Below are positions 2 through 9,183 of a stretch of DNA of 64,000 bases, one piece after another. The notes under the pieces are model-generated. The model had not been told where the DNA came from, made no database searches, and saw only the letters and a program-made list of their open reading frames with translations. Origin of the DNA: Candidatus Rokuibacteriota bacterium (GTDB taxonomy: Bacteria; Methylomirabilota; Methylomirabilia; Rokubacteriales; CSP1-6). The stretch lies in the NCBI GenBank assembly GCA_003221515.1, contig QHSI01000101.1, forward strand, positions 2,753 to 66,752, read 5' to 3'. The position numbers and the translations under genes were made by a program. The first letter of the stretch is position 1. Each line of letters opens with the position of its first letter.

Positions 2-1708
2 GTCTACGACGCGAGCGAAGACCGGTACACGCTCTACGCGGACGTCCAGTACCCGCATCGGGTCAGGAACGCGCTGGCGAGCAACATCTTCAAGGTCCCC
101 GAGCACAAGATCCGCGTCGTCGCCGGGGACGTCGGCGGCGCCTTCGGGACCAAGGGCTGGCAGTACCCCGAGCACAAGCTCGTCCTGTGGGCGGCGCGGA
201 AGCTTCGCCGGCCGGTCAAGTGGACGTGCGAGCGGCGCGAGGCGATCCTCGCCGACGAGCACGCGCGGGACAACGTCACCGACGCCGAGCTCGCGCTCGA
301 CGCCGACGGGCGGTTTCTGGGCATGCGCGTCCACACCCTCGCCAACGTCGGCGCGTACGTCTCCTCGGACCGAAATCTCTTGGCCACGTTCAGCAACGTG
401 GTCACGCTGGTCGGCGTCTACAAGTTCCAGGCGGCCTACGTGCACGTGACCAGCGTCATGACCAACACGAACTCGACGGCGCCGTACCGGGGCGCCGGGC
501 GGCCCGAGGCGACTTACGTGCTCGAGCGGTTGATCGACGACACGGCGCGCGAGCTCGGGCTCGATCCGGTGGAGCTACGGCGGAAGAACCTCATCCCGAC
601 CGCGGCGATGCCGTACCGGAACCCGCTCGGCGCCACCTACGACTGCGGCGACTTCGCGACCAGCATGGAGCGCGCCCTCAAGCTCGGCGAGGTCGCCGGC
701 TTCGCGCTCAGGCGCGACGAGGCGCGGCGGCGCGGCAAGCTGCGCGGCCTGGCCGTCGTCAACCCGATCGAGCAGGCGGCCGGCGCCCAGCCGGAGTTCG
801 CCGAGATCCGGTTCGCGCCGAGCGGCAGCGCGACCGTCCTCATGGGCTCGAAGAACCAGGGCCAGGGGCACGAGACCACGTTCAAGCAAATCCTCAACGA
901 GCGGCTCGGCCTCGACCCCAAGGACGTCCTCTACGTCGACGGTGACACGGACCGGGTCGCCTTCGGCATGGGGACGATGGGATCGCGATCGACGGTCATC
1001 GGCGGCACCGCGCTGTGGATGGCGGCCGACAAGGTGATCGCCAAGGGCAAGAAGATCGCGGCGCGCCTGCTGGAGGCGGCTGAGGCGGACGTCACGTTCG
1101 CCGACGGCAAATTCGGCGTGGTCGGCACCGATCGGACGGTCGTCCTCAAGGACGTGGCGCGCGCCGCGTTCCAGCCGGCGCAGCTCCCGCCGGGTGTCGA
1201 GCCCGGCCTCTACGAGACCGGGACGTTCTCGCCGAAGCAGGCGACGTGGCCGAACGGCTGCCACGTGTGCGAAGTGGAGGTCGACCCCGACACCGGCAAC
1301 GTCGCGCTCGCGAGCTACGTGATCGTCGACGACGTCGGCACCGTCATCAACCCGGTGACCCTCAAGGGCCAGATCCACGGCGGCGTGGCGCAGGGCGTGG
1401 GCCAGGCCCTGATGGAGCAGATCGTGTACGACCGGGAATCCGGTCAGCTCATGACCGCGTCGTTCATGGACTACGCGATCCCGCGCGGCGACACGTTCCC
1501 CGACATGCACATCGAGAGCAACCCCGTGCCCACCAAGCTCAACCCGCTCGGCGCCAAGGGCGCCGGCGAGGCCGGGACCGTGGGCGCCTTACCCGCCGTC
1601 ATGAACGCGGTCATCGACGCGCTCGCCCAGGTCGGCGTGCGCCAGCTCGACATGCCCGCGAGCGCCGAGCGGGTGTGGCAGGCCATCCAGGACGCGAGGA
1701 GACCATGA
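2..1708 (+). CDS. Xanthine dehydrogenase/CO dehydrogenase family molybdopterin-binding large subunit (CoxL/XdhA-like), 5'-partial; begins upstream of the window
   Basis: Frame 2 is open from base 2 ('[16 protein letters not shown]...[18 protein letters not shown]'). It continues through the 461-aa track ORF and carries the family signatures '[21 protein letters not shown]' and 'GGFGxK'. Stop is TGA at 1706-1708. Confidence 0.85.
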
Positions 1709-2539: not shown

Positions 2540-3052
2540 CTACTTCAGCGAGTCGATTCCAGCGCGGCCGATCTGGGCGTCCTGCGCCGAGGTGACGCCC
2601 GACACGCCGACGCTGCCGATGAGCTTGCCGTCGACGACGATCGGGATCCCACCCTCGAGCGGGCTCGCGCCGGGCACCCGGAGGATCCTCAAATTGTTAC
2701 CGCCCTGGGCCAGCGCGTCGTCGAAAGCTTTGGTAGGCCGGCGGAACGCGACGGCCGAGTAAGCCTTCTCGCGCGCGACCTCGATGCTCCCGAACTGCGC
2801 GCCGTCCATCCGCTGCACCATCACGATGTTGCCGCCCGAGTCGAGCACGACGATGCAGACGTTCCAGCTGTTCTTCTTCGCCTCGGCCTCGGCGCCCGCC
2901 ATGACCTTCTTGGCCTGCTCGAGGCTGATCGCCATGCCGTACGGCGGCGGTGGGGGCGGTGCCGCGGCTGGCGGCTGCTGTGCGCTTGCCGTTGTGGCGG
3001 CCAGGACTAACGCCGCGCCGATGAGGGGGGACAGGAGCCGTTCCATCTTCAT
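2540..3052 (-). CDS. GlcG/HbpS-like heme-binding protein (DUF336), secreted
   Basis: 170 aa with an N-terminal signal peptide 'MKMERLLSPLIGAALVLAATTASA'. Conserved DUF336 core '...AKKNSWNVCIVVLDSGGNIVMVQRMDGAQFGSIEVAREKAYSAVAF...IPIVVDGKLIGSVGVSG'. Confidence 0.75.
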   Translation of the reverse strand: MKMERLLSPLIGAALVLAATTASAQQPPAAAPPPPPPYGMAISLEQAKKVMAGAEAEAKKNSWNVCIVVLDSGGNIVMVQRMDGAQFGSIEVAREKAYSAVAFRRPTKAFDDALAQGGNNLRILRVPGASPLEGGIPIVVDGKLIGSVGVSGVTSAQDAQIGRAGIDSLK

Positions 3053-3151
3053 GGGTGTCCTCCGGGGTGAGTGGATTGTGGGATGTCGCTTCGTTCACTC
3101 GGGGTCGCTGTCGAAGGTTCCCTATACCACACTTGCCTTCGACGGGGATCT

Positions 3152-3397
3152 GTGTGTAAAACGCGAACCATCAACATCGAGATCAGACGCTGCGCGATCT
3201 GAATGGACTTGCGGCGCGAGGCGGTCCGCCTCCGCGACGAGCTCCAGACGACCCTTCACGTGCCGGCGAAGATTCGCTGGGGCGGCCTTGGCGAGCTGAC
3301 GGTCATCGTCGACGGTCGCACCGTGTTCTCCAAGCGCGGGGCCGGCCGTATTCCCGAGCCCGGCGAGATCACGCGCCTCGTCGAGTCCCCACGCTGA
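3152..3397 (+). CDS. SelW/Rdx-family selenoprotein (about 81 aa); selenocysteine is encoded by in-frame TGA at 3200-3202 in a CAIU (CxxU) motif
   Basis: Reading frame 2 upstream of the 64-aa track ORF (3203-3397) gives 'VCKTRTINIEIRRCAI-TGA-MDLRREAVRLRDELQ...GGLGELTVIVDGRTVFSKRGAGRIPEPGEITRLVESPR'. This fits the Rdx/SelW pattern i.IxYC..U..RA..L..EL...GG.FEV.vdG..i.SK...G.FPe...i..lv. The proposed start is GTG at 3152, 5 nt downstream of a GGGGA ribosome-binding site. A SECIS-like hairpin starts 13 nt after the UGA. Confidence 0.7.
3215..3236 (+). promoter_or_regulatory. Bacterial SECIS-like hairpin immediately downstream of the UGA (Sec) codon
   Basis: 5' arm GCG-GAGGC (3215-3222), apical loop GGUCC (3223-3227), 3' arm GCCUC-C-GCG (3228-3236). 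That is 5+3 base pairs with one bulged C. The GGUC-containing apical loop and the 11-13-nt spacing from UGA match fdhF-type bacterial SECIS elements. Confidence 0.55.
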
Positions 3398-3726
3398 TCG
3401 TGCAGCGATCGAGGAGGCTTCCATGACCCGGATTTGGACGGTCACGATGCGGCTCGCCGCGGCGGACCGGCGCCAAGGCCGACGTGATCCGCCGCGCGGG
3501 CGCATGTGCCCGACCCGAATCTCGAGAGGGATCCCGCGGTGCTCGACTCGATGCAGCGGCTCAGCGGCGAGTACGGCTTCCTCAAGTACAAGGACCTGCT
3601 GCCGCCGGCCAGGCTGTGCAACTTCAGCTACCGCGATCGCGCGGTGGCCGAGCTCGGCAAGAAGTAGCCACGCTCGATCCACACGCGTTCCGGCGCGACG
3701 ACCAGTCGTCGGAACGCTCCCCTCAC

Positions 3727-4992: not shown

Positions 4993-6774
4993 TCAGCGCC
5001 GCGCCATGCGCTCCTGCATCGCGGCGCGCTCGCCGCTGATGTCGGCGTCGTAGCCGGGCCGTACACGCGCGTCGATGACGACGACGTCGCCGTCCTGCAC
5101 CGCGCGCACGCCCTGCGCGATCGCGCTCCGCAGCTTGTCGGGATCCGTCACCGGGCCGATGCCCTTGGCGCCCTGCGCGACCGCGAGCATGGCCAGGTCG
5201 ATGTCCGGCTCGTTGATCCGCTGGCCGATCCACTTGTTCTCGACCGGTCGCCCGCGCAGCCGCGCGACGCGCTCCTGGTGGGCTTCGTCGTTGTAGAACG
5301 ACCGGTTGTTACAGATCAGGAACAGCGCGGGGATCTTGTAGTGGGCCGCGGTCCACAGCGCGGTTACGCTCATCAGGTAGTCGCCGTCGCCGAGCATGCC
5401 GATCGTCACGCGGCCAGTGCCCTTGAGGGCCAGCGCGGCGCCGACCGTGAGGCCGGGCCCCGCCCCCACACCCGCGCCGCCGTCGCCGCCGAGATAGTCG
5501 AGCGGGTGATCGAAGTGGCGGCCCTCGCCCGGCCAGCCGAGCGGCAGGCGCGTCAGGCACACGTCGATGCCCTCCGTGGCTTCGTTGAGCGCGTCGGCGA
5601 CGGCCCGGAGGCTCAGGACCTCGTGCGGGCGCCGCGCCGGCTCCGGCGCGCGCGGCGGCGGCGTGTGCGCGCGGGCGCGGCAGGCCTCGAGCAGCAGGGG
5701 CACGGCGACGTCGGGCTCGGCGAGGAGCTGGACGTCCACCGGAGGCAGCCCGAAGTACTCCATGCCGAAGCCCCGATGCAGATGGACATCGACCGACGCC
5801 GAGACGATCTTGGCGCCGACGGGCTGATCCGCGTACACCTGCTTGAGCGTTCCGGCCAGATCGATCCAGTCGAGGGCGAGGACCACGTCGGCCTCGCGCA
5901 CGACGCGGACGGCGGCCTCGGAGAGATAGGTGCCGGGCGGCCCGACGTGCAAGGGATGGCGGGTCGGAAAGCTGGCCCCCGGCTTGAGGTCGGTGACCAC
6001 CCGCGCGCCGAGCTTCTCGGCGAGCGCGACGCGGGCCCGCCAGCTCTCGATCGTGCGCCGGCCGCGACCGACCATGATCACCGGCGCCGCGGCGCCGGAG
6101 AGCAGCGCGGCGGCGCGCGCCATCAGCTCGGGCGCCGGGCGCGGCGGCTCGGGCGCCTGGAAGCGCGACGCGTCGGGAAGCGGCGGCAGGCCGCCGAGCT
6201 TGGCTTCTTGTAATCCCGCGTCGAGGTTCACGTAGGTGGGGCCGCACGGAGCCGTCGTGGCCATCTGCGCCGCGCGCAGGAGGGCGTCGTAGGCCGCCGG
6301 CACCGACGCCGGCTGGTTGTCCCACTTGGTGAAGCCGCGGATCAGCGCGCCCTGATCGGACGCGGTGTGGATCCAGTCGATCCAGGGCCGGCGCTTGGCC
6401 GCGTCCCACGGCCCCGTGGCGCCGAGGATCAGCATCGGGACCCTGTCGCACCACGCGTTGAAGATCGCCATGCTGCCGTTCAGCAAACCGACGTTCGAGT
6501 GCAGGATGGCGCCCATCATCCGGCCGCTGGCCTTTGCGTAGCCGTGCGCCATCGCGATCGCGTGCTGCTCGTGCAGGCACAGCAGCATCTGCGGATGCTG
6601 GTTGCCGATGTGGTTGACCAGGCTATCGTGGAGCCCGCGGAAGCTCGCCCCGGGCACCAGGGCCACCCAGGGCACGTCGAGCGCCTGGAGCATGCGGGCG
6701 ATGGCGTCGCTCGACCACAGCTCGTCGCGGGAGGTCGAAGGCAGCGGCGTCTCGGGAACGATCGTCGGCTTCAT
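4993..6774 (-). CDS. Thiamine-pyrophosphate-dependent enzyme (acetolactate synthase / benzoylformate decarboxylase / glyoxylate carboligase superfamily), 593 aa
   Basis: Start ATG at 6774-6772 ('MKPTIVPETPL...') is preceded by GGAGGAAAACAGAG. N-terminal pyrimidine-binding domain and C-terminal TPP motif 'GMLGDGDYLMSVTALWTAAHYKIPALFLICNNRSF' (GDG...NN). The longer track ORF start at 6849 lacks a ribosome-binding site. Confidence 0.8.
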   Translation of the reverse strand: MKPTIVPETPLPSTSRDELWSSDAIARMLQALDVPWVALVPGASFRGLHDSLVNHIGNQHPQMLLCLHEQHAIAMAHGYAKASGRMMGAILHSNVGLLNGSMAIFNAWCDRVPMLILGATGPWDAAKRRPWIDWIHTASDQGALIRGFTKWDNQPASVPAAYDALLRAAQMATTAPCGPTYVNLDAGLQEAKLGGLPPLPDASRFQAPEPPRPAPELMARAAALLSGAAAPVIMVGRGRRTIESWRARVALAEKLGARVVTDLKPGASFPTRHPLHVGPPGTYLSEAAVRVVREADVVLALDWIDLAGTLKQVYADQPVGAKIVSASVDVHLHRGFGMEYFGLPPVDVQLLAEPDVAVPLLLEACRARAHTPPPRAPEPARRPHEVLSLRAVADALNEATEGIDVCLTRLPLGWPGEGRHFDHPLDYLGGDGGAGVGAGPGLTVGAALALKGTGRVTIGMLGDGDYLMSVTALWTAAHYKIPALFLICNNRSFYNDEAHQERVARLRGRPVENKWIGQRINEPDIDLAMLAVAQGAKGIGPVTDPDKLRSAIAQGVRAVQDGDVVVIDARVRPGYDADISGERAAMQERMARR

Positions 6775-7085
6775 CTCTGTTTTCCTCCCCGGGGCGCCGG
6801 TCGGCGCCGCGAGCGCAGCCAGCGTACTCGGCGGCGCGGCGCGCCGCAAGACCGGGGAGCTCGCCGACCGCCGACAGCTCTGCCTCGGCTTCCGTGAGCC
6901 AGAGCTCCATGGCCGCGTTGAACCGGAGCTCGACCCGGTTCAACCGCTCGCCGGCGAGCTGGACGACTCGCGCGGGGGTGATCGAGCGGCGCCGGGAGGA
7001 TCGGCCGACGCCGTGGACGACGAGCACCGCGCTCGGCCCGCGCGTTCCGTCGGCACGCCGAGCGTCGCCCGTCTGCGCCTCGCCG

Positions 7086-7445
7086 TCAGCTGCCTCGGTA
7101 GGTCGTGTAGCCGTACGGGGAAACGAGCAACGGCACATGATAGTGCGCCGCGGCGTCGGCGATTGCAAAGCGGATGGGGATCTGGTCGAGGAATGGCGGG
7201 TCCACCGAGGTCGCGCCGGAGGCGCGGAAGTAGGGGCCGACGTGGAAGAGGAGCTCGTAGCGCCCGAGCTCCATGTCGGCGGGACCGAGGAGTGGGGCAT
7301 CGCACCGGCCGTCAGCGTTGGTCGTGACGCTCTTGACCAGGCGCGTGCGCCCGTCGGCCTCGACGCGGGAGAGATCGATCCGGAGGCCGGCCGCCGGCCG
7401 GCCGCGAGACGTGTCGAGGACGTGGGTCGTGAGGCCGGGGCTCAT
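7086..7445 (-). CDS. uraH: 5-hydroxyisourate hydrolase (transthyretin-like), 119 aa
   Basis: '[25 protein letters not shown]...[18 protein letters not shown]' carries the HIUase C-terminal YRGS signature. Its ATG overlaps the uraD stop (ATGA at 7442-7445). Confidence 0.9.
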
Positions 7446-7966
7446 CGGGCACTCACGAGCCAATCGAGACGGAGACGCGCGATCTCGAAGACCTGGGCGA
7501 GCGCGGTTGCGATTTCCTGCTCGGACGTGTTGAGCAGTCGCGTCTCGAACGCGGCCAGGATCGCGTGCTTGTCGTGTCGGCGCACCGCGATGATGAACGG
7601 AAACCCGAACTTCTCGCGATACGCCGCGTTCAGCCGGCCGAACCGCGCGAACTCGGCGTCGTCGAGCCGATCCAGCCCGGCGCTCGATTGCTCGGCGACG
7701 GAGGCCGGGCTCAGCGCCCCGGCTCGCGCGGCCCGCCCGGCCAGGTCCGGGTGGGCGCGAAGCAGCGCGAGCCGCTCGTCGCGCGAGGCGCGACGCACGG
7801 CCGCCACCATCGCCGCGTGCAGATCCTCGACGGTGGCGAACGGGCGCGCCGGCGCCACGCGGCCCGCGACCCAGGGCGAACGCTCGAAGACTTCCCCCAG
7901 CGCCCGCTCGAACTCCGCGGCGCGCACCCGGTTCAGCGCCTCGAGCGTGAGCGTCACCGCCGCCAC
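7442..7966 (-). CDS. uraD: 2-oxo-4-hydroxy-4-carboxy-5-ureidoimidazoline (OHCU) decarboxylase, about 174 aa
   Basis: '...[31 protein letters not shown]...[48 protein letters not shown]' matches the OHCU decarboxylase family. Proposed GTG start at 7966, 2 nt after the puuD stop (7969-7971). The rest of the 441-aa track ORF is an upstream-frame artefact. Confidence 0.8.
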
Positions 7967-7968
7967 GC

Positions 7969-9183
7969 TCAGCGGCCCCGCGTGCGGACGTCGATCGCGG
8001 CCCCCTGATCGACCCAGCGGGCCAGCAGATCGCGCTCGGCGTCCGTCATGCCGGTCTTGTTGGCGAGCGGCATATTTTTCAGAATTGCCACGCGCATACG
8101 GATCGTTTCGGCGCGGGCGCGGATGCTCTCCGGCGTGTCGAACGTCACCCCGTTGGGCGCGATGCGAAAGATATCGTCGCTCGGCCGCTCGGAGTGGCAG
8201 GACACGCAGCGATGAGCGATGACCGTGTTGGCCGCGTCGAACGCGACGCGCTCCCCGCCCCTGGTCGCGGCGCCGAGCCACGCCGGCGACGTCAGGTAGA
8301 CGACCGCGGCGACGGCCGCGGCGACGGGCACGAGCCACCAGTCGGCGCGCCGGCCGTGCTCGCGCGCGATCATGACGTGACGGACCCCCGCGCCCACGAC
8401 GATGAGCAGCCAGAGGACCAGCCAGTTCAGCCGATGGCCGTACGTCAGCGGATAGTGGTGGCTCAGCATCATGAAGATCACGGGGAACGTCACGTAGCTG
8501 TTGTGGGTCGACCGCTGCTTGGCGCGCGTGGCCAGCGTGGCGTCCGGCGTGCGGCCCGCCGTGGCGGCGGCGATCTGGTCGCGCTGGGCCGGCACGATGC
8601 GCATCCACACGTTCGCCACCATGATCGTCCCGAGCATGGCGCCGGTGTGGATGTACGCGGCGCGGCCGCTCAGCACGCGCGTGAGCCCGTACACGACGGC
8701 CAGCAGCAGCGCCCACGAGAGCACGGTGGCGGCGCGGCCCCCGTCGCGGGCGAGCGGCGAGCTCCACACGAGGTCATACACCGCCCACGCGACGACGAGG
8801 AGGCCGATCCCCAGCGCGACCGCCTGGCCGGGACCGATCGCGGAGATGGCGGGATCCACGAGGTACACGCCGCGCGTGAGGTAGTAGACGATGACCAGCA
8901 GCGCGAAGCCGGTGAGCCAGGTCATCGCGGCTTCCCACTTGAACCAGTGGATCGGCGCCGGCAGCTGGCCCGGCGGGAGCTTGCGCCGCTCGACGAGGTA
9001 GAAGCCGCCGCTGTGGAGCAGCCAGGTGTGGCCCTCCACGTCGGGCCGCGACGGGTCGTTCCGGATCAGCGCGGCGTCGAGCCACATGAAGTAGAGCGAC
9101 GTGCCGATCCAGCCGATGCCGGCGATCAGGTGGACCCAGCGGAAGCCGACATTGAGCCAGTCGAGGATCCAGGCGTCGATCAT
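7969..9183 (-). CDS. puuD: Membrane-bound cytochrome-c urate hydroxylase PuuD (404 aa)
   Basis: Multi-transmembrane N-terminal region plus a C-terminal periplasmic c-type heme motif 'CVSCH' ('...[30 protein letters not shown]...[21 protein letters not shown]'). This is the architecture described for PuuD urate oxidases. Confidence 0.8.

Follow-up and report, generated by a model that had tools for sequence, protein, structure and literature searches.

A candidate SelW-like selenoprotein gene with an in-frame UGA and a SECIS-like hairpin in Candidatus Rokuibacteriota and related bacteria

The analysed DNA (the window, a 64,000-nucleotide stretch of a Candidatus Rokuibacteriota contig) carries, between an HbpS-like gene and the remnant of an ABC substrate-binding protein gene, a 64-aa ORF (3203-3397) whose ATG is directly preceded by an in-frame TGA (Table 1). 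This TGA and an open frame upstream of it had been reported by an earlier examination of the letters alone (the sequence-only reading), and both were recovered: the TGA lies at 3200-3202 and the frame is open back to the GTG at 3152. Translation from the GTG yielded M-CKTRTINIEIRRCAI-U-MDLRRE..., continuing as [TGA]-MDLRREAVRLRDELQ...GEITRLVESPR up to a second TGA (3395-3397), which serves as the stop codon of the gene. A SECIS-like hairpin follows the first TGA, and no such hairpin was found after the second. The fused 81-residue product reads ...IEIRRC-A-I-U-MDLRRE... around the putative Sec, and its predicted active-site motif is Cys14-x-x-Sec17. The 64-aa product is identical in sequence to the GenBank entry PYN01968.1/PYN53824.1 ('hypothetical protein DME07_11690', Candidatus Rokuibacteriota). 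The gene had been called unannotated, which is right for the full selenoprotein, missing from the databases, and wrong for its last 64 residues, which are listed under these accessions; the expectation that gene callers would miss or truncate the gene was borne out, as the databases give these last 64 residues only.

Table 1. Features of the SelW-like locus in the window, and wobble positions in the hairpin region among its relatives (offsets counted with the U of UGA as 0)
Feature	Position	Strand	Remarks
HbpS-like/GlcG (PF03928) gene	2540..3052	-	Pfam 125 bits; signal-peptide-like N-terminus
Divergent intergenic region, ~100 nt	3053..3151	.	presumed promoter region
Full CDS, putative SelW-like (Rdx family) selenoprotein	3152..3397	+	81 codons including the Sec codon
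CxxU redox motif	3191..3202	+	TGC (Cys) 3191-3193, GCG, ATC, TGA (Sec) 3200-3202
Predicted extended lower stem	3204-3211 with 3238-3246	+	around the core; partly conserved
SECIS-like hairpin in CDS	3215..3234	+	lower pairs 3215-3216 with 3233-3234 (C15-G34, G16-C33); bulge 3217
Hairpin upper stem	3218-3223 with 3227-3232	+	six pairs, GAGGCG/CGCCUC
Hairpin apical loop G-U-C	3224-3226	+	GGUCC when the closing G-C pair is taken as open
Remnant, NMT1-type ABC substrate-binding protein gene	3423..3667	+	ATG 3423 after GAGGAGG ribosome-binding site
Arg wobble at bulge	+17		C19, G16, T10, A7 in 52 sequences
Val wobble in loop	+26		A24, G21, C6, T1 in 52 sequences
Wobble facing stem G	+29		C48, T4 in 52 sequences
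Wobble facing stem G	+32		C47, T4, G1 in 52 sequences

For profile searches of the fused translation, U was replaced by C. The fused product matched Rdx (PF10262) over positions 2-73 of the 74 in the profile with 27.4 bits, the gathering score being 22.6. The 64-aa ORF alone scored 23.9 bits over positions 14-73 only; profile positions 2-13 come from the upstream codons, and neither the first strand nor the redox motif is present in the ORF. The proposal of the sequence-only reading, an Rdx/SelW-family protein with CxxU near its N-terminus, was thereby supported, and the motif aligns with the CxxC of the family. The best NCBIfam matches were SelT/SelW/SelH models, both under their curated cut-offs: 19.3 against 34.2 for TIGR02174 (CXXU_selWTH) and 39.5 against 88 for NF041051 (SelTWH_Campy), and on account of these scores annotation pipelines name the protein 'hypothetical'. 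Judged by its sequence, the protein is a divergent relative rather than a member of the narrower TIGR02174 and NF041051 models.

A sequence search of the PDB aligned NIEIRRCAIC with RIAIRYCTQC of Atu0228 (2fa8), a weak match (E = 0.16-0.45) that, at E = 0.16, sets the second Cys of CxxC against the Sec position. An AlphaFold2 model was made of a relative of 75 residues with a database entry that reads across the TGA (P0017), not of the window protein, and was of low confidence (pLDDT 65, N-terminus below 50, N-terminal strand not modelled). The top 19 PDB fold matches of this low-confidence model were all SelW-related/Rdx structures (TM 0.53-0.62), with MIEN1 and mouse SelW lower down the list. 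The order of secondary-structure elements appears to be shared with the Cys-type Rdx structures (Atu0228 2fa8, VcR75 2p0g, 2obk and 3dex) and mouse SelW (2npb), Rdx structures being the top fold matches of the low-confidence P0017 model, and CAIU takes the place of CTQC in 2fa8. The differences are an identity of only 14-25% and the presence of Cys, not Sec, in those bacterial proteins. The best explanation of the sequence and of the model is that the gene would encode an 81-residue cytoplasmic Rdx/SelW-like protein with a thioredoxin-like fold.

Bacterial SelW-like CxxU proteins whose SECIS lies inside the gene have been on record since 2005 (Zhang and Gladyshev; PMC1088965). In the Sargasso Sea data no other selenoprotein family was as abundant (PMC1088965), and a 2026 review lists the SelW-like family (PF10262) as 'predicted with high confidence' (PMC13188914). 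The gene described here resembles these bacterial SelW-like selenoproteins in length (~75-85 residues), in an N-terminal beta-strand followed by CxxU, in a SECIS hairpin placed inside the CDS just after the UGA, and in being of a kind that annotation pipelines routinely truncate. It differs from them in having WGG[LF]GELTV instead of the usual GGxFEV, in its scores below the TIGR02174 and NF041051 cut-offs, and in a conserved neighbourhood of HbpS-like and NMT1-type binding-protein genes. On these sequence comparisons, the gene and its relatives are a divergent Rokuibacteriota/Methylomirabilota subfamily of known SelW-like selenoproteins; the finding is real, and not novel in kind.

In a large protein collection 79 relatives were found, almost all with 57-64 residues and cut at the same place. 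Loci were fetched from reference genomes (12) and from metagenomes (80); the genome loci came from Rokuibacteriota, Methylomirabilota and Binatia MAGs, two being labelled Methylomirabilota, and the others from soil metagenomes. The placed loci numbered 88, namely 87 fetched loci and the window itself. All 88 had TGA at the identical codon after C-x-x, and across the 52 distinct nucleotide versions both the TGC and the TGA of the CxxU motif were invariant. The TGA was common to every relative down to ~55-67% identity and was also kept in three more distant relatives (L098-L100). The peptide upstream of it was conserved as M-[QNK]-[VI]-E-I-[KR]-R-C-[AVLG]-[VIL] with conservative replacements (V/I, K/R through several codons, A/V/L/G), and the majority-base frequency rose from ~0.55 in the upstream DNA to 0.92-1.0 ten codons ahead of the TGA and stayed high through the TGA. 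Orthologous loci were examined for a sense codon at this place or another upstream frame, as the sequence-only reading had advised, and neither occurred in any of them. Two scans for further in-frame TGA candidates, with coding-potential and redox-motif filters, covered the window and all loci and gave none that was convincing besides the one at 3200.

A profile search of the full library returned 294 relatives. Full-length homologs with CxxC at the aligned position were found (P0169 CSAC, P0198 CLMC, P0214 CKSC, P0136 CTEC and P0160 CMTC), and the alignment places the gene and these distant homologs in a Sec/Cys pairing. One close database relative (P0017) has 'W' at the Sec position; its DNA has TGA there as well as at the last codon, and the 'W' is a translation artefact. 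CxxW was also seen at the redox motif of the database Rdx entries P0103, P0123, P0126, P0129, P0145, P0172 (CGAWGYK), P0202 and P0207, which are probably selenoprotein genes with TGA translated as Trp. In a more distant locus (L097 530-778, protein P0082) the TGA site holds CGA (Arg) in the same frame, one step from TGA, which may reflect a change from Sec to Arg or else an error in sequencing; this locus retains a weakened hairpin and is directly followed by a Bac_luciferase-family gene. Both Cys and Sec are missing from the motif region (IEIQTPLFPGDLRK) of P0100, a family member of equal length, and non-redox members of the subfamily seem, from this sequence, to exist.

The usual translation start in the relatives is the codon 10 positions before the TGA, which is ATG (32 versions) or TTG (13 versions). 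In the window clade (10 loci, 85-100% identical) this codon is ATC (3170-3172 in the window), and the GTG at 3152 is the only canonical in-frame start upstream of the TGA in the window; the translation start was therefore assigned to this GTG by elimination, and we regard it as the predicted start. In L015-L021 of the same clade the frame is closed by a stop two codons upstream of the GTG, which leaves the GTG as the only canonical start there too. The GTG is overlapped by a conserved A-rich TGTGTAAAAC stretch (3153-3162), which is a candidate for a promoter -10 element or for a translation signal; a match to the sigma-70 consensus was not found in the divergent intergenic region or the A-rich stretch. 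In the window and in L001-L012 the sequence TGT(G/T)TAAAAC is conserved ~8-20 nt upstream of the usual ATG position, and the surrounding upstream DNA is poorly conserved.

The hairpin begins at the 13th nucleotide after the UGA, with a spacing of 21 nt from UGA to loop, and its folding energy, taken alone, is -15.2 kcal/mol (z = -2.7). Folding agreed in coordinates and description with the sequence-only reading, which had pointed to a hairpin with a GGUCC loop 13 nt after the UGA and had taken its position and loop type to be those of bacterial SECIS elements. According to the published consensus, bacterial SECIS elements have a loop of 3-9 nt, an upper stem of 4-16 bp, an MFE of -7.5 kcal/mol or lower, a G in the first two loop positions that is usually followed by G or U, and a UGA-loop distance of 16-37 nt (PMC13188914). 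The hairpin studied here lies within every one of these limits: its loop is 3 nt (GUC) with G then U, its stem is 6 bp with 2 more below the bulge, and its spacing and folding energy are those given above. The base rate of such structures is high, as 12.5% of the 1,424 TGA triplets in the window precede a qualifying hairpin under simplified ungapped limits, and the ungapped core found here, at -8.2 kcal/mol, ranks no higher than among the best 10% of the TGA triplets of the window. The E. coli fdhF SECIS (NC_000913.3), run as a control, scored z = +0.1 in the same shuffle test. Given this base rate and the score of a genuine SECIS, single-sequence folding statistics cannot decide SECIS identity, and the hairpin alone is weak evidence; the significance of the finding rests on the comparison with relatives.

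Among the relatives, 86% of the cells were paired, compared with 29-51% after sliding the partners. As the element hardly varies and lies over the conserved peptide REAVRLR, covariation in the hairpin did not exceed that of the shuffles; in the RNAalifold consensus only a 5-bp core was kept, and several pairs of the extended lower stem were broken in 13-40 of 49 sequences. The wobble positions separated more clearly (Table 1). At +29 and +32 only C or U preserves pairing, the loop and bulge wobbles are free to vary, and nearby Leu codons outside the stem use CTG freely. This pattern, read from the aligned sequences, is what RNA-level constraint predicts. Furthermore, L098, L099 and L100 have a hairpin whose loop carries G-U, with the offset unchanged, and in L100 the stem codons encode other amino acids (GCG GCA GUU GCC UUG) and the stem still forms.

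Comparison with the fdhF SECIS revealed both likeness and difference. The E. coli hairpin also begins 11-12 nt after the UGA and has a bulge on the 5' side at ~+17, GGUC occurs in both apical loops, and the offsets agree within 1-2 nt (bulged U at +16/17 and loop G-U at +22/23 in fdhF; bulge at +17 and G-U at +24/25 here). In contrast, the upper stem in the window is longer and richer in G+C, with 6 bp above the bulge where fdhF has 2-3 bp, the loop measures 3-5 nt, and the bulge is not conserved in the relatives, in which a G at the bulge position pairs instead. No Rfam family matched the whole window at gathering thresholds, and a search of 3100-3420 with E up to 10 gave only a 10-bit chance match and no bacterial SECIS family.

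Taking the comparative evidence together, we consider it highly probable that the UGA at 3200-3202 is genuinely decoded as Sec. A ribosome arriving at this codon would meet the hairpin at 3215-3234, 12 nt downstream, which would recruit SelB-GTP-Sec-tRNA(Sec); by analogy with E. coli fdhF, the apical G-U would stand at the same distance from the UGA as in the fdhF SECIS. Sec would be inserted rather than translation terminated, and translation would end at the second TGA. The source genome would be expected to encode selABCD. The product presumably cycles between the selenol/thiol and selenenylsulfide states as a small oxidoreductase.

The same arrangement might be read as a UGA that ends a 16-codon leader, with the 64-residue ORF translated separately by termination-reinitiation at UGA-AUG and the annotated protein being the real product. 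An ATG does follow the TGA directly in the window and in 49 of the 88 loci, and the 64-aa ORF just passes PF10262 by itself; however, the next codon is TCC, AGG, TTC or GTT in 15 of the 88 loci, none of them a possible start, and an unusual start (ATT, ATC or CTG) in 12 more, so that a restart at this codon is not a general mechanism. The 10 upstream codons are moreover conserved as a peptide with conservative replacements, and they supply strand beta-1 and the Cys of CxxC/U, leaving fold and active site otherwise incomplete. We therefore judge reinitiation to be very unlikely. Recoding of the UGA to something other than Sec, that is to Cys through a tRNA(ReC)-type tRNA using SelB and the same hairpin, or through near-cognate read-through, has a precedent in tRNA(ReC)-like genes, which are present in ~17% of Sec-type genomes and recode UGA with a downstream SECIS (PMC13582414). 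For a Cys residue TGC or TGT would serve equally, yet neither occurs at this site in any of the 88 loci, and CxxU is the standard state of SelW-like selenoproteins (PMC1088965, PMC13188914); such recoding is, in our estimate, just as unlikely as reinitiation.

A decaying pseudogene, in which the TGA would be a nonsense mutation in a former CxxC protein, is the least probable of these explanations and in our view extremely unlikely. The two deletions in the flanking genes of the window locus and the ATC in place of the usual ATG would agree with decay, but the TGA is found in every relative down to the identity range given above, both halves of the gene are under protein-level constraint, and the window clade keeps frame, motif and hairpin intact.

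For Sec decoding itself, searches for the machinery covered the window and related loci. ARAGORN identified no tRNA genes in the window and no tRNA-Sec in the window or 47 loci, and tblastn with E. coli SelA, SelB, SelD and FdhF gave no match in the window and 720 kb of related loci, a result that is uninformative as the genomes measure several Mb. Use of Sec in the source lineage is supported at the phylum level by the literature: a Methylomirabilota MAG is predicted to hold 63 selenoprotein genes (PMC13188914), and Sec-type group 4 hydrogenases occur in Methylomirabilota (PMC13582414). Overall, selABCD is detected in ~90% of Sec-type genomes (PMC13582414).

The analysis corrects a systematic annotation error, in which GenBank and IMG entries present the gene as a 64-residue hypothetical or Rdx protein without its active site and a Trp that is probably spurious occupies the Sec position in several database relatives. 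The soil Rokuibacteriota, a lineage without cultured members, thereby gain a well-conserved putative selenoprotein subfamily, and the hairpin provides a clean example of a SECIS-like element in which RNA-level and protein-level constraint can be separated at wobble sites. To selenoprotein specialists this case holds no surprise; its conserved neighbourhood is a modest lead to the function of bacterial SelW-like proteins.

With regard to that neighbourhood, the sequence-only reading had described the gene as convergent with the GlcG-like gene and unrelated to its neighbours, and neither description held. The two genes are divergent, and the HbpS-like gene stood head-to-head with the SelW-like gene in 41 of the 49 loci that had enough upstream sequence. 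Downstream, an NMT1-type substrate-binding protein gene followed on the same strand in 54 of the 65 loci with enough downstream sequence, and in L005 genes for an ABC ATPase and a permease are found past the HbpS-like gene. The C-terminal part of the binding-protein remnant in the window is the ORF 3506-3667. Compared with L016, a metagenome contig (98% identical), the window has lost, in two clean deletions, 761 bp inside the binding-protein gene (junction between 3465 and 3466; L016 4028-4788) and 2,137 bp that held the permease gene together with the greater part of the ATPase gene (junction near 2366-2380; L016 790-2926). Short remnants (3423-3667 and ~2366-2476) flank the HbpS-like/SelW-like pair, which is itself intact.

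The conserved layout of HbpS-like, SelW-like and NMT1-type binding-protein genes suggests, on gene order, a shared role. A more specific proposal, that in Rokubacteria the SelW-like protein might act in the cytoplasm as the dedicated redox partner of the conserved locus formed by an NMT1/SsuA-type ABC importer and an HbpS-like protein that handles haem, is speculative and we think it unlikely; if true, it would give the first physiological context for a bacterial SelW-like protein. In the clade of L001, L022-L030 and L049 the head-to-head pairing is interrupted by a gene of ~1.8 kb between the HbpS-like and SelW-like genes, ~34% identical to the thiamine-pyrophosphate enzyme of the window (4993-6849). 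Purine/urate catabolism genes surround the locus in the window (323-1708, 7086-7463 and 7969-9183), comprising a xanthine-dehydrogenase-type molybdopterin-binding subunit, a HIUase/transthyretin-family gene and a Urate_ox_N-family membrane protein.
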